A DNA stretch of 64,000 nt from Raillietiella orientalis (GCA_036172245.1 JAYWIR010000005.1:5084001-5148000), one strand, 5' to 3'; shown: positions 7,733 through 64,000, numbered from the stretch's first letter. Program-made: numbers and translations. Notes: a model not told the origin generated them from the sequence alone.

Positions 7733-10700
7733 TCAGCTCAGGGCTGACACCCATAGCTCGATCCAATCCCTGTAGTAGGAGACCCGAGAGTAAACGCCGG
7801 GCATCCCCGGCAAGCCGCATCCTATTCCCCAAGAAACAATCCCGTAGAGGTAGAACCGTCCTGACGAAAGAAGGGCGACAAAGGCTAGTCCACTCACCCC
7901 ATGTGGCGATTTCTCCCGTACTTACCGTGCACCTGGCAAGACAAGGGGCCGCCGCTATCGCCACCACACGCATCCCCTTCTGTTCTCAAGGGACCAGCAC
8001 ACAGCATCCCAGGGAGAATATTTACGTATGTCTCATCTTGCATGAAATTCTTACATAGCCGCTGTTCCATCACAGTAACCCTAGCCTCCAGCAGCACGTT
8101 CGACAGGCTTTCGGGGTCGTCTGCTGCAAAACAAGGAGAAAGGAGATGAGTTCGTCGGAGGAGGGTGCATGAAATACCCCAACACTCCGTTTCTCCCATG
8201 TTCTGTTACCCTTCCATCCGCAAAGTTTCGGAAAAGTACAGCAGGATGGAATTCCAAGAGCGACACACGACTTCGCATCTCGACTGAAGGAAAAAAACAG
8301 AATGGCATAGTTGCAAAGCAAGGAAAAAGTGGATGAAGAGCTGTGCAATACGTATCTATACACCCACCCTTCCTGCAACTCTCTCAGCAAATCTCGTCCT
8401 GGAAAGAGGAGCGCCTGAAAGCACCGTGGCGCAAAAAGAAAGAGCGGATTCTAGGTTGTATGGCCAAACACACTTCTTGGCTCCATGATGACCTCCCGCC
8501 TGCATGTCGCTGTCGACCACAGAAGCACGGATAAGGAAGATGTGACCTCGTGCACCACCCGTTGCGCGCGCGCTCACATTGCCCCGGAAGAGTGGAACCA
8601 CCGACGTGTGCACGTGTGAACCGCGCCCTCGGAGAAAAGGGAGAGGCAAAAACCGATGCCTCGGCGGGCCTCTCTTCATCCTCATTCCTCGTTTCATCAA
8701 GCATTCTTCGGGTACGCCTGCAGGAATTTCCCTTTGTAAGTCTCACCTGTGGGCACAAAAGTATCGTTCCCGGTCGTTATATGGAGGAACGGTGTCCAGA
8801 AGCGTTCAAACTAGCGCAGGAGGGTGCATCTTCAAGGTACAGCGCGCCCACTTTCGGCGCACGGTGCGGACGACTTGGAGCAGCGAGAGAAGTGCTACGG
8901 CGCACCTCCTCTTTCCCTCTACGCTTTCCCGCTCAATTCCCCGCCTCCGCGAGGTGGGCAGCAGCGAAGTGCGCCGGGTAGCAGCCAGCAGGCACACTCA
9001 CGTATCTGCATCCCCCAGCCGGTAATGGTGCAGGGGATCTGCCCGGACAGAATCGCACCGTAGATGTCCTCGTCATCGAGCGCGAGGCAGATCGGCTGCA
9101 CGAAATGGTTGAAGACGAATCCCCCGTAGGAATTAGGGAAGACCTTCAGCACTGCGATGTCGTTGCTCTGTTCTCCTTCTGAAAGAACAGCCGATGAGAA
9201 GACGACAAGCCATAGTCGCGCGGCTCTCGGCAAAGCTGCGAGGTGTCGCGCACATTTCGCAACACAGCCGACGTCGTCGCGAAACTGCGCTTGGCCGGCG
9301 ACCTCAGCTCCCCAATTTTCCGTTCCTTTCCTTCCCTGTCCCATAAGTCTCGCAGTGCCCACAAAATACGTGCCCTGGTGACCCTCCAGGATACGAAAAT
9401 TTCAGCCCGGCCACAGAAAACGGGAAGAGGTACACTGTTGCGCTCATCGAGGATATGGGGAAGCGTCTCCACTATACGTCGTCAGGGTAATTCCGGTGTG
9501 GCCCCTCCCACCTTACATGGCGCGCGTTACTTCTACAAGACGAAACGGCCTCATTTGTCTCTTCTCTGAAACCAGCGTCCACAAGTCGGAGGTCCCAAGG
9601 AAGATTAGCTACTCCCCGGGAGAAGCCATTCTTGCATCCAAACGCCTCTCCCTTGTCACGGGTGGCGCCGGCGCTGAACGGAAAGAGGATGCGTTTCCGA
9701 AACTCCCCAATGTTCAAAAAAGTAGATGAGAATCGCTTTAGCGTCCGCTCGTGAACTGCGACTCTCCAGGATCCGTGGAAGAACTGAAGCAGCCCCCGGA
9801 AGCAGAGATCGGAAAGCAGCGCCGAAGGGAAACGGATATTCAGGTCCTCGGCACCTGCTGAGTCTCCTCAACCCTCTCCCTCCTCCCGTCATTCATTTTT
9901 CTTTTCCAGACCCCAACCACACCTGTTCAGGCCACCCCGGGGGAAAACACCACCTCCCTCCTTACCTCTCAAGTAATTCGGGTGGATGACGACCTGCTCG
10001 ATGTGAAATAGCTGCTCCGTTTCTTCTGCCTGGTCCAGCCTGTAGCCGCCAACTTTCAGTCTGATAGCGGACGCGTGAACATCCCACACGCAGTGGGCAG
10101 CGGTCAGGACGTGATACTCCGAAATAATGGCCCCTCCGCATATGTGATACCAGTAGTCGTCCAATTCCACCAGTATCTGCGCCTTGACGGAGAGGAAAGG
10201 CAGAGGTCGAAATGGGTCAACATTGAGGACAACACGATGCTCGGGCGGCGCACTCGGAGGTCATGTCCCTCCAGGTCGGAGACTCACTTGCCAAGGATGA
10301 GCCCCATGGTACGTAGGGGAACCTCCGACGACCTTGTTGGCATCCTCACTGCTGGAGGCGACCGTGCTACTATTCCATGTCGGTGGGCTTTCGTTGCGGA
10401 AAGGTTGGCCCATGAAGACGTTTCGAAGACCGCAGTTCTCGATGTAAAGGCGATTCTGCGTACGCGAGCGTGCGTGCGCTGCCGTTGGCACCGCTTGGGA
10501 AGGCACGCCGTTCTCTTCCCCTGGTGGTGGAAGAGACCCGTGGTTACCCTCGCGCCGGAATTCGCTCTCGGTCGCATCCGCCTTCCCGAAAAGCAAAGAC
10601 CGGAACCAGCTGTTCCAGAAGCTGAGGTCCCTCACTGTCTTTCGGGGTCGCTTCCTCGCGACACAATTCTCTCTGCTCACCCTCACGAAACCCGACGTCC

Positions 10701-12105
10701 GGTCAGCCGTGGAGGAACGACGACCAGACTGTCTTTCCCGTTCCGAAACGGACCGGAATTCACCATGTCCTAGCAACCCCGTGCATTGGGGAGATAGCGA
10801 GAGCGAAGGCAGCAGCTTCAGCTGCAGGAGGATGCCAACGTGCATTGATCCGGGATGGTAGCCGACGAGCCTGTCGAACAAAAGACGCAAAAGCTGTGGC
10901 TCTCGCTGGTGTGCACGCGGTACAGAACGCACGCTATTGAGCGGATGCGAACTCGCCTATCCATCGGCATTCCTAGGTCAGGGTCTGCTCCACCTATGAA
11001 GGGGTCGCATAGGAAGGATGCGGAACGCCCGTGTCGTTGTCGTGGCCTCTTCCAAAAATGCTTCCAGGGGAAAGGACCACCTGCGCTCGTAGATTCGAAA
11101 CAGCCACTGCACGGACGGGTGCGATTGTGACAGCCAATTTTGACACAGCCATTTGTGCGTTCCCGGGAAGGTGTCCTAGGTGACCCGTGAACGGGACCGC
11201 GTACCGCGTAGACCGTTGGCAGGCCATGAAGGTGTCCCCCTCTCCGCCGCAGCAGTTTTCGCGCAGGGGATTTCTTTCGGCCCCATGGTGACGCAACCGG
11301 GGGCGCGGTAGGCGTGGAGACGATGGCGTACGGGGCCACCGCGGCCTCTCGAATGTTCACACCGCTATTTGCGAACACTCGGGGATTCAACGCTCTGGTA
11401 GTGTCCTTCGGCCGTTGGTGCTTGGCGTTGCCAAGATCAAGCGGGAAGGAGCCCTCTTTTCCGAAGAGGCATTCAGCAACTCGGAGAGCAGCTCCACAAG
11501 GCGTAGCGGACGCGTTCAGTCTGCGCAGCTTCGGCCCCTGCGGCACCACCGCAGACTTCGCACCAGAGCAGACGCGCAACTTGCTTGATGCAAACGAATC
11601 GTTCGCAGTGGTCAGCATGGATGGTTGGGAGTCCTGACGAGATCTGAATCCGTCGCCGGTGCCCTGCCCCTCGGCAGAGTCAGCACGCACACACCACGGA
11701 CTTGCGGATGCGTCTCAGAACACGGTCGTCTCAAGGGAGCGGTGGTTGTGCACGACGCCGAGAGCAGAGAAAAGCAGAAGAAGGAGATCTCCCTCTCTAA
11801 CAAACGTGGGGAACGGGAGGACTGTCCAGAAAACTCCCTCCGGGAAGAGGCCGTAAAGGTGACGCGAGTGCTTGTAGCTCGGGGAACGTCGGTTTCGCGC
11901 TGGCATTGCGGAATGAGAGGAAAAGCGTCGCTGGGGCGGCAGCCGCTCGGTTGCGGTTCCCTCGCGGGAGAGCGCCGGTGCCACGTGTCGCGTCCCCCTC
12001 GCTCGTCCTCCAGGGAGACGCCGCAGCGACGCAAAGAGCCACACTACCTGATGCGAGGCAGGAGAGCGGCGCCGCGATGCACACCATCATCCAGTAGAGC
12101 CGCAT
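7733..12105 (-). CDS. Secreted S1A serine protease zymogen, trypsin-like specificity (copy L), multi-exon
   Basis: Signal-peptide exon 12105-12048 ([19 protein letters not shown], phase-1 GT). Activation exon ends at 10288 (NCGLRNV...DANK|VVGG...HPWQ). His exon 10182-9966 ([17 protein letters not shown]). Asp exon 9178-9002 (SNDIAVLK...QPICL...TGWG). Ser exon 8123-7926 ([11 protein letters not shown]). Last exon 7860-7733 ([10 protein letters not shown]...PGVYSRV, TGA). Catalytic-domain junctions are GT-AG and phase-compatible. Exons between the signal peptide and the activation exon are unresolved. Confidence 0.9.
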
Positions 12106-12141
12106 CTCGCCCGGCGATCATGCCCAGTGGCAGCTGAGAGT

Positions 12142-12191
12142 CACGTATACATATATATATATACGTACGTACGTATGTATGTGTATACGTG
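12142..12191. repeat. 50-bp near-palindromic alternating purine/pyrimidine tract in probable 5'UTR intron (mirror copy 31861-31910)
   Basis: CACGTATACA-TATATATATA-TACGTACGTA-CGTATGTATG-TGTATACGTG. The outer 10-mers are perfect inverted repeats and the central 10-mer is self-complementary. Confidence 0.85.
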
Positions 12192-12699
12192 GCGGTGCCT
12201 TCTCGAGTGCTTGTGGTATATGAAGGTCAAAGTTGATGATTCCTTTCCGATGTCTTCTTGCGTATCATTGGCTCCCGTGATGCAGTGGTGTGTCATCGCT
12301 CACCTCCCGGCCGGCTAATTGGAGATCCGAATCGAAAGCATCTCGCGCCAGGCGAAACTCCGATCCGCGGAGAACACGAGAACGTGCGTGGCGAGCGGGC
12401 TAATTCGGATTTCGCCGGCGAAGGACGCCACGTGTGCAGGAGGCGCCCTCGCCATTGCGGCTGAGCGCCGTGCGTCGCCGGCGCGGCGGGGACTTCGTGC
12501 GCGTCGCTCTCTTCGGCCAGAGCCGACGGCGCCCGCTGGGGCTGAGAACGGGGGCCGTTTGCGGTCGGCCAGCACGGACGTCCGGGAAAATGTCCTCCTT
12601 CGTTAGGTTGGAAGAGGGAAAAAACTTGAACGAGGAAAAGCAGTGCCTCGCTTTCGCAGTCCCGAGGCGGCTACGATCTCAGGGATGGGCTCGGGACGG

Positions 12700-13625
12700 C
12701 GGCGGGAATAAAAAGGAAGAAGGGGGTATCGTCGAACGGGGAAAATGTGGGGAAGTGTGGCACACGGCGAGAGCACGCAGGGGAGGAAGACACCCGAGGA
12801 GCTGCGTTTCGCGCGCGGACGGGGAGCGTGGAGGGTGGAACACTCCTCTGGTCACGAATTTTTACCTTCCGGCAGCTCGTGGCGACTGCCCGTTTCAGGA
12901 GGTGGGGTCGGGAGCAAGTGGCGGCGCGTTTGGAACGCACGTTCTTGGGACCCCTGTGGTGTTGTGCGCGCGCATCGTTTCTCAAAGCGCGGCTAATCCC
13001 GAGCTTTCCCTCGAGTGCGTCGAACGCATTGCGTCCGCGAACTGTAGTGTCTTGCAACAGGAAACAGTTCAAACAAGTCAGCGGCACGCGGTATCTGAGA
13101 TTGCAGTCCAGTTGCGCTCGTTGTTGGCGATCCTGGAATGCCCCAGGAAGATTTCGTGGGCTCAGAGGACCCTCTTGCTGCAGCACTGTCTTTCCTCTTA
13201 ATTGACAGTGACAGTGACGATCCAGTTGTTTTGATGGCCACTACGGCTTGAACAGGCCGCCTGAGAAAAGGGCCGGTTGGGCGTGCAGAGCGATGGCGTC
13301 GCCAGGGAGGTGACCTGCAGCACTCTTGCCGACAGTCACGTGTGACGGGTGCGTGTTGCTCTCTGTCGTCCATGAAGACGGAAGTGCCTCTGCAGCAGGG
13401 TGTCGTCCTGGCTGTGCGACCACGTGCGGTGCGACCCCTACTGTCGAGCGGGTAGCGTAGCTCAAACAGCGCTGATTATCCGATTTGTTGGTCACCAAGC
13501 CCCACGCGCTCATGGGCGCTCGGAAGTACTCTTTCATGCCATTGCAGCTCGTGGGCACGCTCTCCTTGCAGTGGGCGTTCGAATCCGGACCATACGTGGT
13601 GCTATCAATTTTGACACCTGCCTGT
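12700..13625 (-). mobile_element. Retroelement relic spanning the inner breakpoint of the left arm (tail mirrored at ~30790-31350 +)
   Basis: Head-like GGATTCGAACGCCC at ~13575-13590, ORF1-like remnant (VFMDDREQH), and tail-like SIKRKDS... Confidence 0.45.
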
Positions 13626-15354
13626 ATGGTGAACAGCTGATAGCCACATGAGAAGCGCGCACGTAGCTGAGTGGCAACTTGTGATCTGAGAAGTCAAGAG
13701 TGAGAAACCATATGGACCACCTTTTCTAGAAGATTTTTGCGAGGGTACGTCACCGAATGAATGAAAGTATCACTCGTCTGACCGCAGCCTTTGAGTGGGG
13801 GTGCAACTGGTTTCCTCGGAAATTGACCACCGAGCGGTCTGTGAAGCCCCCTTCCGCCCGGGGATCAAGTCCGCCTCCCGACGGTGACGACCATTTAGCG
13901 CATGGGATCCACAAATCCGAAATATGGACGCTACCTGGAAGAGAGCCATTTGGAAATTCTCCTGCCAGTTCATGGACCGACTCTCGCGGTCTCAGAGCGA
14001 AGGAGTGAGGCAGCAGTTGAGCCTATCTTCAACCGTGGTCACTTGACCACCATATGGACGTCCTCCCCCTGGCTCACGGTCGCGCCACGGAAGAACGACC
14101 AAAGTCCGTGTAGCCAGAGACTCCGACATGCTTGATGAGGAAAGAGTACGGCACCGTCGAACCCCTTCAAAGGTACTTCCCGTATCCAGAAGCGCCATTT
14201 GCGTATATACGCCTGCAAGGTATCGGAAGGGCCTGTAGCAAACGGGGATTTCCCCCTCAAGGCGTGCCCTCGATCGACGCGAGGAGGATCTCACTGAGAC
14301 CCTTCCCTCCCCGGATAAGCTACGTCGAACCTTCACCCAGCTGAAGTGCTGGAAGTTTCTCGGAAAAGACAGACTTTTCTCAGGGTTTCTCACAGGGCAC
14401 CGCAGCACGGATGGTCTCTCTGGCACTGGTACTGACTCGCGCCGAGTCCGTGAGAACCACGCCTGCAGACGATCTCTTCTGTGATCGATTCGGAGCGGAA
14501 GCGTCCGGTCTCCGAGAAGAGCAGCGATACCAATCCGCTCTTGGAGCCGTCCGCCTTTCGGATGTGTAAAGGTCTCTGTCGCAGCGATCTCCGTGGGCTG
14601 CCTCGTTGCGTGCCCTCGAGAATCGGCCGGGGTTGGACATTCCGAGCATGGAGACCTCGAAGTGGCACTCACGAGGCTTCCGGCTGCATGGATCTCGACG
14701 TGGTTCGGTCTCCCGAGCCACCCCCTGGAATACCACGGGATGCCCAATGGCATAACGCAGTGACTGCTCGTTCTTTCAGCAGCCGCCACGCTCGCAAAAC
14801 ATCCGTGTGGCGTGCGGGATCCAGCAGGGGAGCGACCTCTTCCTTTGTTTCTACTACTAATTTCCACAAGATCTCCACTGCTTGTTTCTGGCTAGTGCCG
14901 GAAGTGGAAGGGTGGAGGATGAAGTCAAACGCTGCAGACCCTGAGGCCCTCCTGTCCACTCATGCCAGCCGTGGAGAGTGGGAACATGGAGAACTGGAGA
15001 TGGCACTTCAATGGATTGTGCATAACCGGGTATTCGTGGCGCCATATGCGAACGGCCTGCTTCCCCTGGAGGCGACTTCAGACGACCCTTCCGCGCTAAC
15101 CGGACGCAATCGAAGGCTAGGCGCGCAGCTGTGCGTGTGAACAGGGAGAACCCGGCAGGAGCAGGACAGGCAGACGTGGAAGTGCCTTGGACTCTCCAAC
15201 TCCTTCCCCTTTCTCCATCTGGTAGGCTCCCGGGAGCCTTTCGTGAAGCGAAAGAGCGGCTTTCCCGTCTCCAGAATGAGACAGGCAACCGGTCCGCGCT
15301 CCTGAGCTTCCTCGGCAAGCGTTCCAAAGACAAATCGGGAGCATACCCATCGTC

Positions 15355-16240
15355 GGAGGCCGTGTGGTTACGGTCTCCGCCCGTGACATCATTAACCGTC
15401 GCGGGTTCGAGTACTCCGAAATGAATACTCGCAGTGCGTCGCACGTTCGAGTTCCTCCTGCAAGATGACACCGGTTGGCCTCCATTCGTTCGGTTGAGGC
15501 ATTGGTAGCGTTTCAAACCGGATGCCCCTGATGAGGGCCTTGACAACAAGAGTCGACCTTCGGGTCCTTACAGGAATCAAGGAGTGGGAGTTCCCCTCCA
15601 GTTGTGCAAAGGAGCGGATCCCCTATTCCGGGGTGACCCCCTGCGTCATGCCGATGGAAAAGGTGTGTAAGCACCTCTCCAGAGAGTGCAGAGAAGCGAG
15701 CCGCTTCCTTCGGGAAGCAGAGCCTATCTCAATTCTAGAAGCGTCCCTTAGGGGTTCTCTTCAGAGGAGGAAGTGACAAAAAGCGGTTCCCTTTCAGGTT
15801 CCCTCCGGAGAAAAAAAAATGGAGCGGATCTCTCCAGGGCCCTCCGAAAAGAACAAGGAAGGAGATTCCCTTCGAGGTTCCCTTCGGGGATCCCTCCTCA
15901 GGAGTGAGAGGAACGGACTCCGACCCTTCCTGGATTCATAGGGAGGTACCCTCCTGGAGTACCCTCCATCATCTTGAGAAACTGCACTCACCCTCAGGTG
16001 GCGTGGAACAGCGTGAAGGAGCTGTGTAGGCTGCCACCAGGTGCGCGACGGCTCTTGAGCTACTCAGCGAAACAAAAAAAGAAAAACTGAAGGACAACAA
16101 AGACAGAAAAGAGAAGGATTTCCACCATACTTGACCTTTACCATGTGGATGGACCCGTCTTCCAGGAGGTTCAGAGTTCATCGCGTGCTTCTTGCTGACC
16201 CTCATCTGCACCTGGTCATGGCCGAGGCGTCTCTTGCAGA
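15355..16240 (+). mobile_element. Retroelement 5' part: tRNA-like head, linker and degenerate APE start
   Basis: Head GGAGGCCGTGTGG...GTCGCGGGTTCGAGTAC. Colinear homology to 47230-46737 and 45723-45300 on the minus strand. Confidence 0.6.
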
Positions 16241-16469
16241 ATTAACTAGAAAAAAAAGCATTCATCCGGCAAAAAAGAGCCGTTGCCTTGTAGTGGGTTG
16301 TGACCCCCCTTGCAACCTTCAGAGTTCAGGAGGGATCTCCCCTCGCAGGAAGGTTCCCGAACGGGGTCCGCACACTGGCGAGCTCCTCCTTGCGGTTCGT
16401 CAAGCACAGCGACGCCGTCGAGATCCCACACAAGAAGTGACGATGAGGGCGGCGTTCTTGTTCTGTTCC

Positions 16470-16930
16470 TCCCTGGCGCATCTTGAGGCCGCCATTGTGC
16501 CACGAAAGCGGAAGAGAAACCCCAAACGCTCTTCGGAGCTTTTCTTCACTCTGGAGCGGATGCCTTTGCCTGCTGCGATCATCGCGGCAGGCAGCGTTCC
16601 TTTCAGAGTGAAAAGAACATCCAGAGAGTGGGCAGGGTTTTCCCACCGGGGGTGTAGCGCCGTGGCAAGATGTTCGGCCGCTGCACCCAGGAGGACAGCA
16701 CTTTCGATTGGCAGATCCAGGAAGGTCCTCCTCGTGTGGCCACACCCAGCAAGGTGCAGAGCAAAACCTCCCCCGGTCAGCGGGAGTCGGATGATAACCT
16801 TCAGCAACCCGACATGGCGCCACCGAGCCTCCGAGTGGGATCCTGGATCTCGCGGTTTTCCACAAGTCCTTCCACAGCGCTGCCCAATGGGGACGGAGGA
16901 GGGAGGGCAACGAAGGCGCTCCAAATGACG
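16470..16930 (-). mobile_element. Degenerate retroelement ORF2 C-terminus
   Basis: ENPAHSLDVLFTLKGTLPAAMIAA resembles GNPRDALKALFVADALRPEASLAA of the 22450 copy. Confidence 0.45.
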
Positions 16931-17387
16931 GTTTCCTTCGGCAGGCAGAGCTCTTCTGATTCACAAGACTCCTTGCCTCCTCATGTCTTATCTTTCGGGG
17001 ATATCTCGGAGGGACCTCCTCATTCCAGATGGCTGGGACATTTAAAAAAAAATTCAAACAAGTCCAATTGCATAGCTATGACGGACAAGGACCGACGTAC
17101 GGCGGCCCAAACCCAAAAGAGCTATCCTTGCAGGGGATCGAACCAGAGGAAAGCTGAGGAAGAGAAGGGGAGATAAACAAACAATCGATAAATAAGGGAA
17201 TCGAATGGACCGGCCTCACCGTACTCCATTTGATTCTCGAAGGCCAGCGTCGGTCACGGAAGGGACGGAAGGATGTGGGGTGCTCTCGCCGGTTTCCGAT
17301 AAGTCCTCCCACAAGCACTTGATGGTTCCCCGCCAGATTACATCCCAGACCGGACCATTTTGTTGCTCTCCGTAGGCGGTGGTTATG

Positions 17388-17456
17388 GCCCACGTTGGCG
17401 GCTGTAAGGCTTCGCGCATAGCGCCACGCGTTGAGGGTTCGAATCCCGCCCGTGGA
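17388..17456 (+). ncRNA. tRNA-derived sequence (pseudo-tRNA / retroelement 5' head), not a functional tRNA
   Basis: T-arm/B-box GGG-TTCGAAT-CCC and acceptor-like pairing CCACG/CGTGG. D and anticodon arms are irregular. Followed by the family motif TTCGGGTGCGGCACTGG. Confidence 0.55.
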
Positions 17457-17569
17457 AGAAGAGACAGCGAGAAAGGCGGGTGCGAGAAAGGTGGGTTTTG
17501 AGCCCTCTTCCTTCCCGCAAAATGGTGGCCTGTAGGCTTCGGGTGCGGCACTGGTTGACACTCAGTCAC

Positions 17570-19680: not shown

Positions 19681-19993
19681 AAAGAGGTGTGAAAAATATG
19701 TTCCACGCTGCTTCCCTCTTGGGAAGCAGCATTTCGCTGACTCCAAAGGGCGCCAGGGTGGGCGTTCGCCTTTCCCAAGCAGGCAGATCATATTTCTATC
19801 GGGGAAAACGAACCCATAGGCACCCATCAGGGACACTACCACTGGAATATGTTTATTTTATAAATAAATGCCCTGGCATGACCGGGTGTCAAACACTGCT
19901 GCACCCGAAGTCTATAAGGCCAACCAATGCAATCCTGCTTGGGGACTCGAAACCCACGACGCACCCATTTCTCTGGAGTCGATCCTTCATTTC

Positions 19994-24300: not shown

Positions 24301-24306
24301 ATTTAT

Positions 24307-27248
24307 CACCCGGTCACGCCGGGGAGTTTATTTAAAATGAACCAGTTATGAACGAAAGTTCCCAGCCGACGACTATAAGAAGTAAAGGGGAGGATCCCCC
24401 GGCGCGTAGGCCGGGAAAACGAAAAGTCCGGAACGGTGAAGGCACAGAGGGGGCAACAAAAATAAATAAGATTGGGTGAGATAGATTAGCGATCTTTGGA
24501 TTCGCACTGCACGCATCAGGATGCAAACGGAAAAAGAAAAAAAAATACAGGGAAAATTGCATAGCGAAGAGGGATAGGGAATGAAAAAATAAATAAATAA
24601 AGGAGGACAAGGGACCAGGGTCACCGGGCCTGGACATTCCTAACCATGCGCAAACCGGCGCTGTATGCCGGTGATCTCCCTCTTTGTCTCTTCGTCCAAG
24701 TGATGCCTCCTTGCAGTCGCGCTAATGTAGGCGGTTGCCATCGCGGTGACATTTCTTCCCCCGCTTGGTGGTCTCCAGAACATTTCGGGCTGGGGCGATG
24801 GCGCGAATGCAACTCATGGTTGCGATCACTGCGCCAGTCATGAGTTCTCTCGGTGCAAAGAACCTTCTCAGCGCATCTCGAGCGGTGTCCTCCTGGTGCA
24901 GGAGTGCTGATGCCAACCTCCACCACAGTTCCTGGAGGGCATCGCAGTCTAAAAGCAGGTGCGGAAACGACTCCGTCGACCCGCACCTGGCACAGTTAGG
25001 GGAAATCAACCCCTCCGGAAACTTGGTGCCACCACTCGTTGTACCGGAATCCCCAGTGCACGAAGAGCACTACGTCCTGTTTCCAACTCGGCGGGAACAC
25101 TGATGCGTTCACGCAGTCTAGCGGGGGAGGTTGAAATCTGCTATCAGGTGGGATCTCCGCGTGCTTGCTTCCATCAACCATTTGCGCTGCAGGGTTTCAA
25201 AGAATCTGGTCCATGCACAGCGCATGTTGGAGCCGCTTGGTGCGTATATGTTCGCCACGACGAGGTCGATCGATTCGGATCACTTGAAGGCAAGTTGTCC
25301 TACTCGGCTTCCTCCGTCTAACTGAATGTCTCGTACCTCGCTGTCCACAGGTGGTTTCAGCAAAAAGGTGACCTCGCACGAGTGAATCGAGCCGCAACGC
25401 CAAGGTAGCTTGCCGCCAGCGATCCTGGATTTCTTTCGCAGAGATGTTGTGATCTCGTGCAGAAGGTCTAGGTCGAACGGTCGCAAGGAGGAGGCTGCGC
25501 TCTGTCTTCTGCCGTAGTCTCACAGTCCGTTGACATTCCACCAGGCTACACATAGGCGCCGTCAGGAGCCGCGCCCACGCGTTACTGCTGGCATATCGGT
25601 TCTGCGGTTCCCACCTGTTGCTCAGGCGGGACGGTAGCCAGTGATGGAGGAGGTAAAGGGATGACCTCTCTCTTCTGCTCCTCCTCCTTCACCTTTGTTC
25701 TTCTTCCGGAGTGAGGGATCCTTTCCGAGGAGCACTCCCGGGAACCAACTGCATCCTCCGGAGCTGATGTCTCCTTTACTTGGGGGGGATGCATTCTTCA
25801 CTGGGACCTTGGGCTTCTTTGAGGCATAAGGACTGAGTCTCCACTTGGAATTATCTGATTCAGGTCGGAGTCGTAAGCCATGCCGAAGTTGCCCTCCGCG
25901 GGACGCCTCACGGCCTTTTTCTTTTGAGGCCTTTATTTTCGAAGGTGTTGGCGTCACACAACCTTCTCCGAAGAGATGGAAGTAGCGTTGCAACAACCTC
26001 CGTTGCTATCGACCGGTTCGTCGATCACGCTTTCCATGGCTGCGTTCACTTTTTCGATCGTCGCCTCGATCGCATTAATCTGTTGAAGCCTTGCAGTCCT
26101 GTGGCTGTTTATTGATCAATTTTCACGTTGTCACGACTTTTTTCGTTTGGGAGAAATTTTTCCCCTATTTTTTCTGATGTTATTACTTGCCGTCCCGCTT
26201 CATTGGTCATTTCTTCCCCACTTTTGAAAGTTTGTTCCAATGAACCCTGATTTGGCTGCGATGGACATCTTTCCTTCCTCCCGTTGGTCGCGGTGGCTCT
26301 CCGGTTTTGCGCTTCAAATGTTGCGGACGAGTCTTTTTGGGCACATAAACTTTATCGGCCATGGCAAGCAATTCTCGGACATTTTCTTTTCAGATGCCCG
26401 GTTTTATTGCAATGGCTGCGTAACCTCAGTTTCCTGGGGAACCGGACATCAACATAAAGTCCCCTGATTTCCACACGGTAGGGAAGCTGCTTCTCTTCGT
26501 GTACGGTCACGCGTGCCGCAGCCAGACGGCTGCATATTCCCTCATACCCGGGAGACAAGTTTGACTTGGTCCAGCACTCGTGGACCGTAGCATATTCTTT
26601 GAGCTGACGAACGGAGGACTTCACGCTCGTCCATCCTCAGCCGTAAACCTCGTAGGTGGGCCCCTACTGAGTGGTCCACCGTTTTAGGGTAGAGCCTCTT
26701 GCCTTCGATGGTTATGGGGGTGTTCAGCAGTCTCTGAGCGAGAGCTGCCTCTTTTTTGCCGGTCAGCTCAAAGATTTCTCCTCGCTCACCACAGAGAGTC
26801 CTTCGAGGTCTCCCTTCTCGACGTTCGCGTTGCGCAACCCCTACGCGAAGGAGTGCAACGGACGCTAAACCTAATCGACCTACCTTGTAAATTAGGGCAA
26901 ATTCTGGACCAAGTAGACCTCCGTTTCTGCCTGGGCAACGGGTGTGGCCTCCGAAATCACCTGACTCCACATCCGTGTATTCCTAACACTTGCTACATCC
27001 TTGGAAGCAACAATCTTCGTCTCCATTGTGGTTGGTGGAGAAGTCTTCATATCGCATTCTCCCTCCATAGCGGCTATGTGTGGCATTTCTGCCATTATGC
27101 CGCTACGTCCACAGCCACCACACAGATTTGAAAAAAACGTACCACTCGTTGAAATTCACGGAACGTCGCGAAGCGCGTCCGTCCTTTACGGGTGTTCGAA
27201 TCCGCGACGCATGGTACCACGCTCTGACAACCTAGCCACACGACCTCC
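24307..27248 (-). mobile_element. Internally deleted L1/Tx1-like element: tRNA-like head, ORF1, APE N-half, zinc-finger tail, 3'UTR (no RT)
   Basis: Head 27248-27188. ORF1 from ~27095 with zinc knuckle SHCNKTGHLKRKCP. APE motifs CVAWWNVNGL, VVANIYAP and IADFN (25555-25130). Then CARCGSTESFPHLLLDC, and the AATAAA-hairpin at 24332-24307. Confidence 0.8.
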
Positions 27249-27751
27249 AACGCGGGTTTAAGAATTAAAAAGCAGGGTGTTTCCAAATGTAAAGGGGAAG
27301 GACACTGCAATGATCTAGATGTGATTTTGAGTTTGGTTCCTGAGATATGCGCGTGCAACAGGAAAAGAAAGCCTCCCGCGTGGCCGCTAAAACAGGCGTG
27401 CCATCCGAGTTGGACGGGAAACAGGTCGGAGAGTGAGTGCCGGTACGTGTTCAACAGTATCTCGAGAACAGGCTGAAGCTGTCGGACTCCAGCTGTCTCC
27501 TTGTCTGATTCCTCGTATAATCTTGATGGCTTCGGTGAGCTGGCCGCTGAAATAGATAGGAATCTTTGCTCCCCGCTATAGTAAGAGTAAGTGGCAGAGG
27601 AAGCTGGCTGAAGAACCAAACCTTTCCAGGAACATAAGGGGTAGATGAGGAAACTCAAGATGTCCTTGATACCTCTCCGAGACAGACCTTCCGGGCCCGG
27701 GACAGCTCTCCCTTTCTGTCTTCCGATCGCGGCAACGATTCTGCAGATTTT

Positions 27752-28900
27752 CATCTGGTGACGCCAGGTCGTTTATTTCATGTTTTTTTAAAAAAATAAT
27801 GAGCAGTCCAGTTGGGAAAAAGGCAGTTCCCGGAAAAAGAAAAGAATCAAAAGAAAAGAAATCAAAAAGAAAAGAAGTTCATTTGGAGGGTTCACCGACA
27901 CGCAAGTCCAGATTTCTAAAAGCCCGGAACGGGAGAAGAAACAAATAAATAAAGTGGGGAAGATATGGACGAGGGCCTTTGGTGTGTCTCGTTCTTTCTT
28001 GAAAAGCCGGGGAAGGTACGAAACGAGTGGGAGGGGGTAAATTAACAGAAAGAAATAAACCAAAAAAAAAATAAAGTTAGGGTGAGGACAGGGGTCATCG
28101 GTGATGTCCATGCCTTCCTTCTAAAACCGACGCTGGATACCGGCGATCTCCTTCTTGACTTGTTCTTCCAAGTGAAGCCATCTGGCAGACGTCCCCATGA
28201 AGACGGCTGCCATGCAGGTGACCTCCCTTCTCTGTGCCCCAAACTCCAACAAGTGGCGGGCTGTGACGGTGGCGCCGCGGATGCAGCATGCCGTCGCAAT
28301 CGCGGAGTCTCCACCCCTCGCGAAGAATTGCTCAGCAGTGTCTCTAGTGTGCTGAAGCCAGCCTCCGCCAGAGTTCCTGGCGCGCAATGCAGGCCAAAAG
28401 TAGGTGCGGGAACGATTCAGTCGCCCTGCTCCTTGAACAGTCTGAGGATGGAGCTCCCGCTGAGACCAGGTGCCTGCACTGGTTGCGCCGAAGACCCCAG
28501 TGCAGAAACAGCAGTACATCCTCTTTCCACTTCAAGGGGAACATGGAAGCGTTCACCCACAAAGGAGTCACAGAGCGTTTTTCACAGAGTACATTCAATA
28601 GCTGCGATTTTGCAGATCACGAAGAGCTCATCAAGCTGGTCAGAAGCCGTCTTCATCAGCCAGCGCCGGATCGCCTGGATCAGCTATGTAGCACACAGTC
28701 CTGGTCAGGAAAGGCCCTCGAGCATCAAACGAGAGTCATTTTGTCTCACTGTCACGCTTCAGCGAGGAGCGCACTTGGCCTTCCGAGTTCAGCAGGCCTG
28801 CTGCTCCCGATTGCCAGGTTTACCTCCCCGCTGAAGCAGCGCATTCAACGGGGCGTCTGACAGCGGCTGCCTGCCGACAGTGCGGGCGCGCAGGAAGATT
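27752..28900 (-). mobile_element. L1/Tx1-like tail and 3'UTR
   Basis: FPLKWKEDVLLFLHWGLRRN...CSRSRATESFPHLLLAC. Terminal hairpin at 27752-27777. Confidence 0.75.
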
Positions 28901-29981
28901 CACCTCTTTCACCCAGCTCTTGTGTCGGACGGTATGCCCAACGGAAAACTGTTTCCAGGACAACAATGTCCAGGAAGGCAAAGAGCGAGCGTTTCCACGT
29001 GAGACAGAGGGAGCCCTTCGTAAACCAAGAAGGCGTTAAACTCGCTCGAAGGAAGTGCGAGGGGGCGCATTGTGCTGCAGCGACCTTTCAGGAGTGCCAG
29101 GCCGTTCCAAGACGATGCGATGATCGTTTTCCTTCCAGGAGCGCTCCGACCCTTGGGATGTCCTGCGCTTAGCGAGCGACCTCTACTCCTGCCTTTGCGC
29201 AAAGGAACCGATTGGAACGCACCTTCTCTCAGCGATTTCTGAAGAGGTGCGCCTCCGCCGTAGGTCAGGAAGAGCGAGAGCTCCAAGAAGAGCCGTTCTC
29301 GATGGCGTACATTGTCTCCTCCATCGGAGAGCTCAAGAGGAGGGAGAAGCCACGGGTGGAGGGTCTGCAAGAGAAGCTCTCCCAAAGGTTCGCTGCGAAG
29401 CCTGCTTCCCTGGTGCAGAAACCGACCGTGCTGATTCGGGAGAAGGACGAGGTATCTGCCTCCCTCCGGTCAGCCAGAGTGCGATTCCTTTGAAAAGGAG
29501 GCGAACTGCTCAACCCGAGTGATTGACCTTCGACTCCCTGAGTCAGGGCAGATGTCGAGCGGCTCTTCAAGCCGGGACGGGCGGCGGCCGAGTCCTTCTT
29601 CAGGAGGGGGACAGAGCTCTCAATCAGGTAGAAGTTGCTGTGACGATGACGGTCGATCTGCACAAAGCATTAAACAAGGAATGTGTAAACCAGGAACTCC
29701 TTCCATGGAGTGCTTGGGTTTCCTGCAGTTTTCCTTCTGCTTTCCCTTCTCTCGCTCTAACGCGATGCAGTTACCAAGAATACGCGCAGCTGTCAACCCG
29801 GGTGTTTCACTCGGTCACGCGGGGGCGTTTCTTCTCAAAGAATGGTCACAGCAAAGCATTCGAAATAGAAGCCAAAAGCCATTCGTCCGCGCTGGCACCC
29901 TCTTCTCCGGGAGGTGAGGAGGAAGTCACTGCTCCGGAGCGGTTTGCCGGAAGAGAAAAACGGAAATACACATATTTCCGG

Positions 29982-30088
29982 CAAATGTTATGAGTTTATT
30001 ATTAATAAATGCCCCGGCGCTACCGGGTGACAACTCCGGAGGGAACCCTCAAGGAAACCAGTACGGCTTCCTCCTCCTCCGAAGAGAA
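29982..30088 (+). repeat. 107-bp exact direct duplicate of 46685-46791
   Basis: CAAATGTTATGAG...CCTCCGAAGAGAA reads base-for-base identical at both sites. Confidence 0.92.
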
Positions 30089-30089
30089 C

Positions 30090-30785
30090 GGGGACCAGAG
30101 TATGGAGAAAACATAAACGAAAAGATTAAATAATCAATCAACCAAAACAAGGTTAAGAATGTTGATGGGACAAGGGAAGGGATCACAGTGTACTTCCTGA
30201 CGTCCCGGGCATTCTTTGCAGGATGCCAACTAGTTTCCATTTGTGCTGAGCGAAATGCGGCCATCTTACGGTGATCCTTGAAATAATCACTATCAGGATG
30301 GCATCTCCGGTCCATCATCATCGTAGCTTTTCCTCATCTCTACGTCGCTTAAGCAGCACAGGGCTCCGATGAATGCCGCATGCGAAATTCCGCCACGAGT
30401 CAAGAGGCGCCAAAGCAGGTTTTCCGGCTGGTCTCCCAGTGAGTCCAGGGACACAGCCAAACGTTTGGAAGCACTCTCGATGATAACACAATAGAAAAGC
30501 AGGCGTGCAAAGGTTTCTCCTTCATCACATCGGTTACAATCTGAGGTCTAATTTCCTCTGGTCCAGTGGTGGAGGTGCGCTCTGCATGAGACAGTCCAAA
30601 TGCAACAAGCGCGATGCCAAGTCCTGCCACTTCAGAAGACGTATGAAGCTGTCTAAAAGCAACGAACGGACCCCCAGTTCATCCCACAAGATTTCCAGGA
30701 GATCCTCAAAGAGGAGAAGTCCTTTGGAGTAGGCAGCCCGGTTAGAAACATCAGCCAGGCGGCGCACCCGAAAACAATGCAACAA
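30090..30785 (-). mobile_element. Degenerate retroelement tail
   Basis: LLFEDLLEILWDEL...LLKWQDLASRLLH matches the family motif. Confidence 0.55.
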
Positions 30786-30831
30786 TTTGTTACGTCTGAA
30801 GATCTCACAGGACGCCTACCAATTTCCTAGG

Positions 30832-33800
30832 TCGTCACTGTCACTGCCAATTAAGAGGAAAGACAGTGCTGCAGCAAGAGGGTCCTCTGAGCCCACGAAA
30901 TCTTCCTGGGGCATTCCAGGATCGCCAACAACGAGCGCAACTGGACTGCAATCTCAGATACCGCGTGCCGCTGACTTGTTTGAACTGTTTCCTGTTGCAA
31001 GACACTACAGTTCGCGGACGCAATGCGTTCGATGCACTCGAGGGAAAGCTCGGGATTAGCCGCGCTTTGAGAAACGATGCGCGCGCACAACACCACAGGG
31101 GTCCCAAGAACGTGCGTTCCAAACGCGCCGCCACTTGCTCCCGACCCCACCTCCTGAAACGGGCAGTCGCCACGAGCTGCCGGAAGGTAAAAATTCGTGA
31201 CCAGAGGAGTGTTCCACCCTCCACGCTCCCCGTCCGCGCGCGAAACGCAGCTCCTCGGGTGTCTCCCTCCCCTGCGTGCTCTCGCCGTGTGCCACACTTC
31301 CCCACATTTTCCCCGTTCGACGATACCCCCTTCTTCCTTTTTATTCCCGCCGCCGTCCCGAGCCCATCCCTGAGATCGTAGCCGCCTCGGGACTGCGAAA
31401 GCGAGGCACTGCTTTTCCTCGTTCAAGTTTTTTCCCTCTTCCAACCTAACGAAGGAGGACATTTTCCCGGACGTCCGTGCTGGCCGACCGCAAACGGCCC
31501 CCGTTCTCAGCCCCAGCGGGCGCCGTCGGCTCTGGCCGAAGAGAGCGACGCGCACGAAGTCCCCGCCGCGCCGGCGACGCACGGCGCTCAGCCGCAATGG
31601 CGAGGGCGCCTCCTGCACACGTGGCGTCCTTCGCCGGCGAAATCCGAATTAGCCCGCTCGCCACGCACGTTCTCGTGTTCTCCGCGGATCGGAGTTTCGC
31701 CTGGCGCGAGATGCTTTCGATTCGGATCTCCAATTAGCCGGCCGGGAGGTGAGCGATGACACACCACTGCATCACGGGAGCCAATGATACGCAAGAAGAC
31801 ATCGGAAAGGAATCATCAACTTTGACCTTCATATACCACACGCACTCGAGAAGGCACCGCCACGTATACACATACATACGTACGTACGTATATATATATA
31901 TGTATACGTGACTCTCAGCTGCCACTGGGCATGATCGCCGGGCGAGATGCGGCTCTACTGGATGATGGTGTGCATCGCGGCGCCGCTCTCCTGCCTCGCA
32001 TCAGGTAGTGTGGCTCTTTGCGTCGCTGCGGCGTCTCCCTGGAGGACGAGCGAGGGGGACGCGACACGTGGCACCGGCGCTCTCCCGCGAGGGAACCGCA
32101 ACCGAGCGGCTGCCGCCCCAGCGACGCTTTTCCTCTCATTCCGCAATGCCAGCGCGAAACCGACGTTCCCCGAGCTACAAGCACTCGCGTCACCTTTACG
32201 GCCTCTTCCCGGAGGGAGTTTTCTGGACAGTCCTCCCGTTCCCCACGTTTGTTAGAGAGGGAGATCTCCTTCTTCTGCTTTTCTCTGCTCTCGGCGTCGT
32301 GCACAACCACCGCTCCCTTGAGACGACCGTGTTCTGAGACGCATCCGCAAGTCCGTGGTGTGTGCGTGCTGACTCTGCCGAGGGGCAGGGCACCGGCGAC
32401 GGATTCAGATCTCGTCAGGACTCCCAACCATCCATGCTGACCACTGCGAACGATTCGTTTGCATCAAGCAAGTTGCGCGTCTGCTCTGGTGCGAAGTCTG
32501 CGGTGGTGCCGCAGGGGCCGAAGCTGCGCAGACTGAACGCGTCCGCTACGCCTTGTGGAGCTGCTCTCCGAGTTGCTGAATGCCTCTTCGGAAAAGAGGG
32601 CTCCTTCCCGCTTGATCTTGGCAACGCCAAGCACCAACGGCCGAAGGACACTACCAGAGCGTTGAATCCCCGAGTGTTCGCAAATAGCGGTGTGAACATT
32701 CGAGAGGCCGCGGTGGCCCCGTACGCCATCGTCTCCACGCCTACCGCGCCCCCGGTTGCGTCACCATGGGGCCGAAAGAAATCCCCTGCGCGAAAACTGC
32801 TGCGGCGGAGAGGGGGACACCTTCATGGCCTGCCAACGGTCTACGCGGTACGCGGTCCCGTTCACGGGTCACCTAGGACACCTTCCCGGGAACGCACAAA
32901 TGGCTGTGTCAAAATTGGCTGTCACAATCGCACCCGTCCGTGCAGTGGCTGTTTCGAATCTACGAGCGCAGGTGGTCCTTTCCCCTGGAAGCATTTTTGG
33001 AAGAGGCCACGACAACGACACGGGCGTTCCGCATCCTTCCTATGCGACCCCTTCATAGGTGGAGCAGACCCTGACCGAGGAATGCCGATGGATAGGCGAG
33101 TTCGCATCCGCTCAATAGCGTGCGTTCTGTACCGCGTGCACACCAGCGAGAGCCACAGCTTTTGCGTCTTTTGTTCGACAGGCTCGTCGGCTACCATCCC
33201 GGATCAATGCACGTTGGCATCCTCCTGCAGCTGAAGCTGCTGCCTTCGCTCTCGCTATCTCCCCAATGCACGGGGTTGCTAGGACATGGTGAATTCCGGT
33301 CCGTTTCGGAACGGGAAAGACAGTCTGGTCGTCGTTCCTCCACGGCTGACCGGACGTCGGGTTTCGTGAGGGTGAGCAGAGAGAATTGTGTCGCGAGGAA
33401 GCGACCCCGAAAGACAGTGAGGGACCTCAGCTTCTGGAACAGCTGGTTCCGGTCTTTGCTTTTCGGGAAGGTGGATGCGACCGAGAGCGAATTCCGGCGC
33501 GAGGGTAACCACGGGTCTCTTCCACCACCAGGGGAAGAGAACGGCGTGCCTTCCCAAGCGGTGCCAACGGCAGCGCACGCACGCTCGCGTACGCAGAATC
33601 GCCTTTACATCGAGAACTGCGGTCTTCGAAACGTCTTCATGGGCCAACCTTTCCGCAACGAAAGCCCACCGACATGGAATAGTAGCACGGTCGCCTCCAG
33701 CAGTGAGGATGCCAACAAGGTCGTCGGAGGTTCCCCTACGTACCATGGGGCTCATCCTTGGCAAGTGAGTCTCCGACCTGGAGGGACATGACCTCCGAGT

Positions 33801-36800
33801 GCGCCGCCTGAGCATCGTGTTGTCCGCAATGCTGACCCATTTCGACCTCTGCGTTTCCATCAAGGCGCAGCTACAGAGGGCAGCGTACGGCTACTGGATG
33901 CACCAATGCGGAGGTTCCATCATTTCCCAGTATCACGTACTGACCGCGGCCCACTGCGTATGGAGGGTTCCCAAGAACATTCTCAGGGTGAAAGCCGGCG
34001 TCCACAAGCTGAACCAAATGGAGCGAACGGAGCAGGTATTCCACATCGAGCAGGTCGTCATCCACCCGGATTACTTGAGAGGTAAGGAGGGAGGTGGTGT
34101 TTTCCCCCGGGGTGGCCTGAACAGGTGTGGTTGGGGTCTGGAAAAGAAAAATGAATGACGGGAGGAGGGAGAGGGTTGAGGAGACTCAGCAGGTGCCGAG
34201 GACCTGAATATCCGTTTCCCTTCGGCGCTGCTTTCCGATCTCTGCTTCCGGGGGCTGCTTCAGTTCTTCCACGGATCCTGGAGAGTCGCAGTTCACGAGC
34301 GGACGCTAAAGCGATTCTCATCTACTTTTTTGAACATTGGGGAGTTTCGGAAACGCATCCTCTTTCCGTTCAGCGCCGGCGCCACCCGTGACAAGGGAGA
34401 GGCGTTTGGATGCAAGAATGGCTTCTCTCGGGGAGTAGCTAATCTTCCTTGGGACCTCCGACTTGTGGACGCTGGTTTCAGAGAAGAGACAAATGAGGCC
34501 GTTTCGTCTTGTAGAAGTAACGCGCGCCATGTAAGGTGGGAGGGGCCACACCGGAATCACCCTGACGACGTATAGTGGAGACGCTTCCCCATATCCTCGA
34601 TGCGCGCAACAGTGCACCTCTTCCCGTTTTCTGTGGCCGGGCTGAAATTTTCGTATCCTGGAGGGTCACCAGGGCACGTATTGGGTGGGCACTGCGAGAC
34701 TTATGGGACAGGGAAGGAAAGGAACGGAAAATTGGGGAGCTGAGGTCGCCGGCCAAGCGCAGTTTCGCGACGACGTCGGCTGTGTTGCGAAATGTGCGCG
34801 ACACCTCGCAGCTTTGCCGAGAGCCGCGCGACTATAGCTTGTCGTCTTCTCATCGGTTGTTCTTTCAGAAGGCGAACTGAGCAACGACATCGCAGTGCTG
34901 AAGGTCTTCCCTAATTCCTACGGGGGATTCGTCTTCAACCATTTCGTGCAGCCGATCTGCCTCGCGCTCGATGACGAGGACATCTACGGTGCGATTCTGT
35001 CCGGGCAGATCCCCTGCACCATTACCGGCTGGGGGATGCAGATACGTGAGTGTGCCTGCTGGCTGCTACCCGGCGCACTTCGCTGCTGCCCACCTCGCGG
35101 AGGCGGGGAATTGAGCGGGAAAGCGTAGAGGGAAAGAGGAGGTGCGCCGTAGCACTTCTCTCGCTGCTCCAAGTCGTCCGCACCGTGCGCCGAAAGTGGG
35201 CGCGCTGTACCTTTAAGATGCACCCTCCTGCGCTAGTTTGAACGCTTCTGGACACCGTTCCTCCATATAACGACCGGGAACGATACTTTTGTGCCCACAG
35301 GTGAGACTTACAAAGGGAAATTCCTGCAGGCGTACCCGAAGAATGCGTGATGAAACGAGGAATGAGGATGAAGAGAGGCCCGCCGAGGCATCGGTTTTTG
35401 CCTCTCCCTTTTCTCCGAGGGCGCGGTTCACACGTGCACACGTCGGTGGTTCCACTCTTCCGGGGCAATGTGAGCGCGCGCGCAACGGGTGGTGCACGAG
35501 GTCACATCTTCCTTATCCGTGCTTCTGTGGTCGACAGCGACATGCAGGCGGGAGGTCATCATGGAGCCAAGAAGTGTGTTTGGCCATACAACCTAGAATC
35601 CGCTCTTTCTTTTTGCGCCACGGTGCTTTCAGGCGCTCCTCTTTCCAGGACGAGATTTGCTGAGAGAGTTGCAGGAAGGGTGGGTGTATAGATACGTATT
35701 GCACAGCTCTTCATCCACTTTTTCCTTGCTTTGCAACTATGCCATTCTGTTTTTTTCGTTCAGTCGAGATGCGAAGTCGTGTGTCGCTCTTGGAATTCCA
35801 TCCTGCTGTCCTTTTCCGAAACTTTGCGGATGGAAGGGTAACAGAACATGGGAGAAACGGAGTGTTGGGGTATTTCATGCACCCTCCTCCGACGAACTCA
35901 TCTCTTCCCTCTTCCCTGTTTTTTTGCAGCCATTGATCCCTGGAGCATGTCGCACGTGCTGCTGGAGACCAAGGTCACGGTGGTCGATCGTGATCTCTGT
36001 AGGAGTTTCCTGTTCGGAAAATCATTCCCAGATATCCTCCCTGGGATGCTGTGCGCTGGTGTTCTGAGAACAGGAGGGGGAGCCTGTCTAGGTGATAGCG
36101 GCGGACCTTTGTCTTGTGAGGTGCAAGGTAAGGACGGAAGAAAGCGCTATGCGGGGTGTGTCGACTTGCCTTTGTCGCTCTTCTTTTGTCAGGGAGGTTC
36201 TACCTCTACGGGATCGTTTCCTGGGGAGTAGGCTGCGGTTTACCGGGGAAGCCCTCAGTCTTCTCGCGGGTCTCCTACTACAGGGATTGGATCGAGCAAT
36301 GGGTGTCAGCCCTGAGCTGAGGCCACCAGTGCATCCAGTCACAGAGCGTGCCTGGGATGAGGTGTGCATGTTTTGGACAGGAGGGCAAATGAGGATGAGG
36401 AACTCTGGAAGTGACGTCAGTGCCCCTTCCAGCATGGAGGAGAGAGGAGGTGTCCTATGGGGGCTCTCGTGGTTCTTTTTCCCTGTCTCTCGTTGTTCCC
36501 TCCTGTGAGAGCGTGTAGCCCTCGTTTTCCTTCTCGCCCGAGTGGCGCTCGAATCCACGCGGCGGGGAAGCTCTCGAGGTCGGCGGAGGCGCCACTCCTC
36601 GAAAGATAGGTTTCGTTGAACTGACAAAACGGTTCATCCTGAGGATGCTGTGGCACCGCATCGATGCGGGGGCGTGCTTACCGGTGGACCGGAGACGACT
36701 TCTCAGCAGCTGGGGTGACGTCATTCCCTCCTCCGCTGACGTCGGTATCCTAGACAACGGCAAGCTTCCTTTTCCCGATTAACGTGGGCTGTCTCCTGCA

Positions 36801-63800: not shown

Positions 63801-64000
63801 TTTGGTAGAACTATCCTTTTCAACACATGGATTTTGTTGGTACTTAAGTGTATACATTACTCTCTATAGTTATCCACTTTCAATTATAGTTCTCTCCACT
63901 GCACTAGTTATCTGGAAAGGAAATTACCAATTTTATACGGAAGGCTTTCAACTAACCTTATTATGAACATAATTCTCACATAAATAACACCAAACTGAGA

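Follow-up and report, generated by a model that had tools for sequence, protein, structure and literature searches.

How can two duplicated genes remain almost letter for letter the same in their introns and flanking DNA while some of their exons become as different as those of old paralogues? This question is raised by a 64,000-nt stretch of the genome of Raillietiella orientalis (GCA_036172245.1 JAYWIR010000005.1:5084001-5148000; this whole stretch is called the window, and positions are counted from its start), which carries two serine protease genes of the chymotrypsin fold in the arms of a 6.2-kb inverted repeat. About 89% of the repeated unit is at 99% identity or above, whereas two short segments are as different as old paralogues, and these segments hold the substrate-contact loops and the S1 pocket of the enzymes. 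We think it probable that the genes are old inverted duplicates homogenised by recurrent gene conversion, and that the two islands escape this process since conversion would erase a difference in specificity between the two proteases.

The arms were confirmed as an inverted repeat by global alignment of one arm against the reverse complement of the other. In a self-BLAST of the window they match over 6213 nt at 96.8%, and no residual homology was found past either arm boundary, where sensitive local alignment gave matches at the level of an unrelated control. The alignment has 199 differing columns out of 6218, very unevenly distributed: counted per 100 columns, they have a variance/mean ratio of 16, and the longest identical tract reaches 1235 nt, against a permutation maximum of 437 (0 of 10,000 permutations reach 1235). 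Two islands contain 158 of the differences in only 661 columns (Table 1), and the remaining 5557 columns hold 41 substitutions and no indel column. Island 1 consists of the 3' 56 nt of intron 1 and of exon 2 minus its last 12 nt; island 2 begins with the last 25 nt of intron 3, takes in exon 4 and intron 4, and ends within exon 5, of which the last 21 nt are left out. The exons within the islands align without indels. The differences lie mainly in coding sequence, since exons hold 127 of them in 786 columns (12.6% of the alignment; binomial p = 1e-63).

Much of this reversed pattern had been described in an earlier sequence-only reading of the locus, which claimed that about 2.9 kb of upstream DNA and the long introns are nearly identical, that the exon bearing Asp102 is the same after its first four codons, and that the exons bearing His57 and Ser195 and the last exon differ at 27 of 72, 26 of 66 and 5 residues, respectively. 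The counts in Table 1 bear this out, down to the exact numbers of residues and of synonymous-only codons in the His exon; intron 3 differs at 4/854 positions outside its diverged end. Its further statement that divergence enters the adjacent short introns only is right for the short introns but too narrow, as the last ~25 nt of intron 3 and both arm edges are diverged as well (the outer edge differs at 9 of 89 columns, and the inner edge has 3 differences within its first 21 nt). The dead retroelement that it placed upstream was not confirmed: none of 55 stop-to-stop open reading frames (ORFs) in the upstream region (32 of at least 60 residues and 23 of 30-59 residues) matched a retroelement family in Pfam at E<=0.1.

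Near-identical inverted arms may also be produced during assembly, when copies are collapsed, when multi-mapping reads polish one arm with the other, or when haplotypes are joined; the true copies would then be more evenly diverged, or would be alleles. A background made of substitutions alone, with no indel columns, would be compatible with cross-polishing. However, polishing can erase about 1% divergence, not 25-30%, and cannot create the contrast between islands and background; scattered single differences also persist throughout the near-identical parts. The window contains no N, and the arms are inverted with 17.6 kb of unique sequence between them, unlike fold-back chimeras or haplotig duplications. 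Both copies are intact and differently specialised and, taken as alleles, would make the pattern even stranger. We therefore regard an artefact as quite improbable.

Table 1. Features of the inverted repeat and of its two protease genes. Where two positions or strands are given, the right copy comes first and the left copy second; a slash within a motif marks the activation site or the splice donor.
Feature	Position	Strand	Differing columns between arms	dS; dN	Remarks
Left arm of inverted repeat	7014-13225	.			Matches reverse complement of 30827-37039
Right arm of inverted repeat	30827-37039	.			Matches reverse complement of 7014-13225
Unique spacer between arms	13226-30826	.			17,601 nt; 5' ends of both genes face spacer
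Upstream			8/2872
Exon 1, end	33699-33764; 10288-10353	+; -	0/66		Right: ...ANK/VVGG... activation site to PWQ, donor CAA/GTGAGT; left: 66 nt identical to right copy
Intron 1			10/105
Exon 2 (His57 exon, TAAHC)	33865-34081; 9966-10182	+; -	51/217	0.305; 0.278	27/72 residues and 10 synonymous-only codons differ; Pfam Trypsin E=2.4e-14 (right), E=1.5e-14 (left)
Intron 2			8/787
Exon 3 (Asp102 exon, NDIAVL)	34869-35045; 9002-9178	+; -	2/177	0.026; 0.007	Differences at exon positions 5 and 10; right: Pfam Trypsin E=0.0017, below gathering score; left: from arm alignment
Intron 3			15/884		11/15 in last ~25 nt, including a 6-nt indel
Exon 4 (Ser195 exon, GDSGGP)	35930-36127; 7926-8123	+; -	58/198	0.717; 0.288	26/66 residues differ; Gly189 (right), Asp189 (left); Pfam Trypsin E=9e-10 (right), E=1.2e-9 (left)
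Intron 4			12/65		No indel
Exon 5 with stop codon	36193-36320; 7733-7860	+; -	16/128	0.431; 0.066	5 residues and 9 synonymous-only codons differ; right: SWGVGC...KPSVF, Ser226; left: Gly226; no Pfam hit in either
3' flank			19/719
Island 1	33809-34069; 9978-10243	+ (right)	61/266		Longest identical run 27 nt
Island 2	35905-36299; 7754-8142	+ (right)	97/395		Longest identical run 31 nt

Each arm carries one intact S1 protease gene of five exons, on the minus strand in the left arm and on the plus strand in the right arm. We placed the exons from stop-to-stop frames together with the arm alignment. The two copies have equal exon lengths, GT-AG boundaries at all four introns, and open spliced frames that read ANK/VVGG, TAAHC, NDIAVL, GDSGGP and SWG.GC, as in a chymotrypsin-fold protease. 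Exons 2 and 4 of both copies score above the gathering score of PF00089 (Trypsin), which places the pair in peptidase family S1A, and the closest PDB chains are those of elastase 1, TMPRSS13, factor XII, and granzyme A. Residue positions were assigned from alignments of both copies with six outgroup protease domains, using a numbering (His57, Asp102, 189, Ser195, etc.) that we take to be that of the family, with position 189 anchored on GDSGGP. The motifs of the catalytic triad His57/Asp102/Ser195 are present in both copies and aligned with all six outgroups, and the zymogen activation site ...ANK/VVGG... is the same in both. All cysteines are kept in both copies, in the contexts [35 protein letters not shown] and GCG, and are presumably paired in disulfides as in other members of the family.

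Upstream of the exon 1 segment, about 200 codons in the frame of the VVGG exon are free of stops (33096-33698; left 10354-10956); this stretch is rich in Ser, Arg, and Gly, with a single difference between the arms. It contains no Pfam domain and does not meaningfully resemble the nearest homologue at the N-terminus. Because this homologue also possesses a low-complexity N-terminus, of 131 residues, the upstream stretch may correspond to a coding pro-region, and Table 1 gives the end of exon 1 only.

What do the islands change in the enzymes? Positions 189, 192, and 216-226 lie within them, as do the 37, 60, and 170s loops, and the copies have different S1 residues. Trypsin-type specificity, that is cleavage after Arg or Lys, goes with Asp189 at the base of S1 together with Gly216 and Gly226. 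The left copy has this pattern and the right copy does not. Asp189 and Gly226 are found in the left copy and in all six outgroups, whereas the right copy has Gly189 and Ser226; at position 192, the left copy has Gly and the right copy Leu. The PDB alignments agree on position 189 (left copy against TMPRSS13 and factor XII, right copy against granzyme A); the left-copy segments [12 protein letters not shown] and MPGVY match TMPRSS13 and factor XII at the Asp and the Gly, and granzyme A has Gly226 opposite the Ser of the right copy. On these residues the left enzyme is classified as trypsin-type, and the right copy is not to be filed as a trypsin by specificity: with Gly189 and Ser226, it is predicted to lack an acidic S1 base, and its primary (P1) preference has very probably changed. 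Relative to the six outgroups, derived changes are spread over both copies. As the two zymogens possess the same Lys/VVGG site, the trypsin-type left enzyme could activate both.

A difference of this kind might have arisen quickly after a recent duplication, and the silent sites bear directly on this point. Synonymous (dS) and nonsynonymous (dN) divergence was estimated per exon by the Nei-Gojobori method (Table 1). Island dS is 0.31-0.72, against 0.18-1.6% divergence in non-coding sequence outside the islands, and intron 4, which lies inside island 2, is 18% diverged. Silent divergence in the islands is thus 30-250 times the background (island synonymous sites versus background, Fisher p = 4e-57). 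A young duplicate pair with quickly changing proteins is thereby excluded, in agreement with what the sequence-only reading had argued from the synonymous differences.

Framework blocks within the islands show ratios of nonsynonymous to synonymous proportions (pN/pS) of 0.19-0.38, with pS of 0.33-0.55, and these codons are under purifying selection. The 60/70 and 170s loop blocks have a pN/pS of ~1.0. The 37-loop block (first 15 codons of the His exon; 33865-33909, left 10138-10182), with 14 nonsynonymous and 0 synonymous differences, is the only one that suggests recent positive selection over age. The substitution spectrum of the islands is ordinary and direction-symmetric (75 transitions, 72 transversions), and no targeted-mutator signature was seen in it.

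These data also bear on a recent duplication followed by targeted hypermutation or by a process resembling the "accelerated segment switch in exons" (ASSET). The locus does resemble venom protease families in which introns are >85% similar and exon segments change, as reported in the excerpted text of PMC2711939, and the 37-loop block would fit such a process. But the synonymous sites of the framework and intron 4 are as diverged as the replacement sites, the island exons align base for base with no base-specific signature among their substitutions, and purifying selection acts on the framework codons. The venom pattern, an excess of nonsynonymous over synonymous changes in the changed segments with introns and silent sites left untouched, is not what we found, with the 37-loop block as the sole exception; dN/dS across the islands is 0.48. 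We consider this explanation highly improbable.

If the islands are old, the near-identity of the rest calls for an explanation. The homogenised segments are not equally similar: as delimited for this comparison, the upstream region differs at 5/2849 positions (0.18%), intron 2 at 8/787 (1.0%), the Asp exon at 2/177, intron 3 at 4/854 (0.47%), and the 3' flank at 10/630 (1.6%). This heterogeneity is significant overall (chi-square p = 7.5e-5), between the upstream region and the 3' flank (p = 4e-5), and between the upstream region and the stretch between the islands (p = 0.003). A single recent copying event predicts uniform low divergence, whereas conversion tracts of differing age, rarer near the edges and between the islands, predict the observed pattern. 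The unequal divergence of the homogenised parts and the eroded arm edges therefore favour repeated conversion events over one recent copy event.

The same evidence speaks to another possibility, in which a recent duplication was followed by the patching of one copy, in exon 2 and in exons 4-5, through ectopic conversion from a diverged third paralogue. Such a patch would make the islands a record of the age of that paralogue and not of the pair, and would explain why they are centred on exons, as distant family members share homology mainly there; in arthropods the S1 proteases make up large families, and among the hits we retrieved many have multiple trypsin domains. However, intron 4 and the ends of introns 1 and 3, which lie within the islands, can be aligned between the copies, so that the donor would have to share introns, and the mechanism of recombination disfavours conversion between sequences that are ~25-30% diverged and have no identical run >31 nt. 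Neither the heterogeneous background nor the eroded edges are predicted by a single recent duplication. Moreover, we found no third copy within the window, where the 151 retrieved proteins matched only the two known copies by tblastn, and no protein in the databases that comes nearer to the islands of one copy than the other copy does; nor did the islands of one copy resemble the outgroups systematically more than those of the other. We judge such a patch unlikely. A weak tblastn match at 49321-49635 (E = 0.046) has no Pfam support and was rejected.

Overall, the two copies are 77% identical in protein sequence; for the island exons the values are 62% and 61%. A profile-free search of the right His exon against 1.84 billion representatives yielded 2343 hits at E<=1e-3, none of them above 57% identity, and the best database matches reach 47% for the left His exon and 54% for the left Ser exon. 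Over the full domain, an ostracod protein comes closest, with 44% identity to both copies. The 15 hit proteins that we looked up include some from three ostracods, insects, a tick, and vertebrates, those of highest identity being from ostracods, insects, and the tick. By these sequence comparisons, no known sequence is nearer to either copy than the other one. The hits would suggest a crustacean-like affinity of the genes, probably with a poorly sampled lineage of arthropod type.

The Asp exon (34869-35045; left 9002-9178), although kept the same between the copies, is the least conserved exon with respect to other S1 proteases. It received 4 tblastn high-scoring segment pairs from the 151 proteins per arm bin (5 in the left arm when the adjacent bin is included), and, compared with all six outgroups, it is longer by 4 residues at one place and by 5 at another, through two insertions. 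A protein word-index search with this exon gave 32 candidates, none of them significant. Among metagenome contigs, 201 pattern matches reduced to 2 loci, with matches of only 11 and 15 residues that we judged spurious.

We propose that an old inverted duplication of a 6.2-kb unit gave two secreted, zymogen-type S1A protease genes lying head to head, whose arms would since have corrected each other repeatedly by non-allelic gene conversion. This correction would explain why identity stays at 98.4-99.8% in the upstream 2.9 kb, in exon 1 with the activation peptide, in introns 2 and 3, in the Asp exon, and over most of the 3' flank. The His exon on one side, and the Ser exon, intron 4, and the last exon on the other, would have escaped it. 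The left copy may have kept an ancestral trypsin-type pocket (Asp189, Gly226) that the right copy lost (Gly189, Ser226, Leu192), with selection removing the conversion tracts that overwrote the differences in the islands. Later, heteroduplex rejection would have made the mismatch-rich islands self-insulating (today they contain no identical run >31 nt), which would account for their very sharp edges. Silent sites and the enclosed 65-nt intron could then diverge freely, while conversion tracts in the flanks would stop sharply at the island edges. The sequence-only reading had likewise proposed old duplicates homogenised except in their specificity segments, and all tests made within the window (silent divergence, background heterogeneity, and exon placement) support this.

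Could the islands have escaped without selection? Given the same old duplicates and the same conversion, they may have arisen by chance or by a locally higher mutation rate, after which mismatch density alone, as a neutral and mechanical barrier, blocked recombination. Identical runs of 27 and 31 nt, the longest in the two islands, are too short for efficient homologous recombination, and both the sharp island edges and a dN/dS below 1 are consistent with such a barrier. Chance escape would, however, be expected in introns and flanks, whereas the islands centre on coding exons. The exons that escaped are those with positions 189, 192, and 216-226 and the 37, 60, and 170s loops, whereas the Asp exon did not escape, and pN/pS in the loop blocks is ~1 or more. 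A purely neutral origin of the islands thus appears rather unlikely to us.

Several points nevertheless weigh against selection acting together with recurrent conversion, the explanation that we prefer. On the data of the window, selection is inseparable from a purely mechanical mismatch barrier. With an island-wide dN/dS of 0.48, positive selection is not demonstrated, and two sequences preclude a site test. Conversion as the homogenising process would follow from the pattern of identity between the arms; GC content shows no directional bias from one copy to the other, and so gives no independent signal of biased conversion, and variation in mutation rate could contribute to the unequal background divergence. 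The island edges are very sharp, passing from ~0.5% to ~30% divergence within 30 nt, whereas simple models of selection plus conversion predict a smoother peak, so that the blocking of tract extension by mismatches is an added assumption. Finally, the paralogue search covered the 64-kb window only.

A more speculative and rather doubtful extension is that the genes form a shared chassis with two cassettes, in which conversion is retained for keeping promoter, activation peptide, and scaffold exons in lock-step, and the cassettes are insulated purely by mismatch density. If so, conversion would provide co-regulation and a common activator, and the level of identity below which conversion tracts abort in this lineage could be read, to the base pair, from the island edges. 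The two genes would then amount to a natural measurement of the threshold for escape from conversion, and their design may be a recurrent one in crustacean-type protease families.

The surroundings of the protease genes are poor in recognisable features. None of the 100 spacer ORFs of at least 85 residues had a Pfam hit at E<=0.001 (150 ORFs scanned), and Rfam and tRNA scans of the window were empty. The spacer holds old dispersed repeats of 120-690 nt, at 65-81% identity and in both orientations, which are probably decayed transposable elements. Some link the spacer with the region to the right of the palindrome (15356-23051 with 41122-47230), and others link the left flank with the spacer (4752-5290 with 24535-25085 and 28062-28553). 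While these repeats are at 65-81% identity, a 107-nt direct repeat is 100% identical between its two copies, one in the spacer ~740 nt from the right arm (29982-30088) and the other ~9.6 kb beyond the right arm (46685-46791); it has no Rfam or tRNA match. On the minus strand at 53403-53828, a stop-to-stop ORF of 142 residues is a transposase fragment matching the Mutator-family transposase PF00872 (E = 7.9e-7, profile positions 39-117 of 379), and this is the sole Pfam hit among 225 ORFs of at least 85 residues outside the arms. A separate scan of 22 long ORFs of the window gave nothing above threshold. The G+C content is 53-60% in and between the arms, 42-44% in 38001-40000 and 48001-52000, and 32-40% in 58001-64000.

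How does this locus compare with known systems? Arm-to-arm gene conversion is said to have been described for the palindromes of the human Y chromosome by Rozen et al. in 2003, and accelerated evolution reportedly for snake-venom serine proteases by Deshimaru et al. in 1996. Among other proteases, Wines et al. (in 1991, for rat kallikreins) and Wang, Magoulas, and Hickey (in 1999, for a trypsin cluster of Drosophila) reportedly described concerted evolution or gene conversion.

Sex-chromosome palindromes, such as those of the human Y and X (PMC3403216), resemble our locus in their inverted arms, unique spacer, genes within the arms, and >99% arm identity, which here applies outside the islands. 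By comparison, the arms of our locus are only 6.2 kb long, the genes in its two arms are not kept identical, and conversion appears incomplete, leaving two gene segments deeply diverged. For snake-venom serine proteases and other venom families, the excerpted text of PMC2711939 describes accelerated evolution and ASSET, with exons less conserved than introns. The venom proteases belong to the same S1A family, and there too surface and specificity segments diverge while introns stay very similar. However, in the venom cases described there nonsynonymous changes exceed synonymous ones and the segments look unrelated, whereas here silent and intronic island sites are equally diverged and each base of one segment has its counterpart in the other, which speaks for age and not for acceleration. 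S1 protease clusters are similar in that their paralogues may exchange sequence and that positive selection acts on surface and specificity sites. Nonetheless, a minimal contribution of conversion is given for rodent kallikreins in the excerpts of PMC3114847, none was found for an Anopheles protease cluster in those of PMC3068966, and neither set of excerpts describes an inverted pair with identical introns and diverged exons. In the literature that we searched, non-exhaustively, no palindromic S1 protease pair with such a mosaic is described.

The closest parallel is a theoretical one. A divergence peak in converted duplicates is the predicted signature of selection under gene conversion, and the model (Innan, 2003; Teshima and Innan, 2008) is reviewed, in the excerpts of PMC3924837, with primate OPN1LW/OPN1MW and human RHD/RHCE as examples; in the red and green opsins, introns are homogenised while exon 5 stays diverged. 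The protease pair has this same signature, with near-identical non-coding sequence and far more diverged silent sites in the peaks. As in the opsin and RHD/RHCE genes presented there, introns and flanks are homogenised, and divergence, low in the flanking introns, is highest in exons whose residues, here, are predicted to change function. Those pairs are arranged in tandem, unlike the protease genes, which are inverted around a 17.6-kb spacer, and relative to the excerpted examples the contrast is far stronger here, since the island exons are 24-29% diverged and the flanks 0.2-1%, and there are two islands (266 and 395 columns). The interest of the locus lies in this cleanness and in an explicit switch of the S1 pocket, which would make it an unusually sharp natural example of duplicated genes gaining different functions while still copy-corrected. 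If confirmed, it would offer a compact system, with 6-kb arms and five exons, for studying tract length, tract stop points, and the level of mismatch that insulates, and it would link conversion boundaries to a measurable enzyme specificity. It points to no new kind of mechanism, and is probably an extreme and clean case of the established pattern of conversion with a divergence peak.

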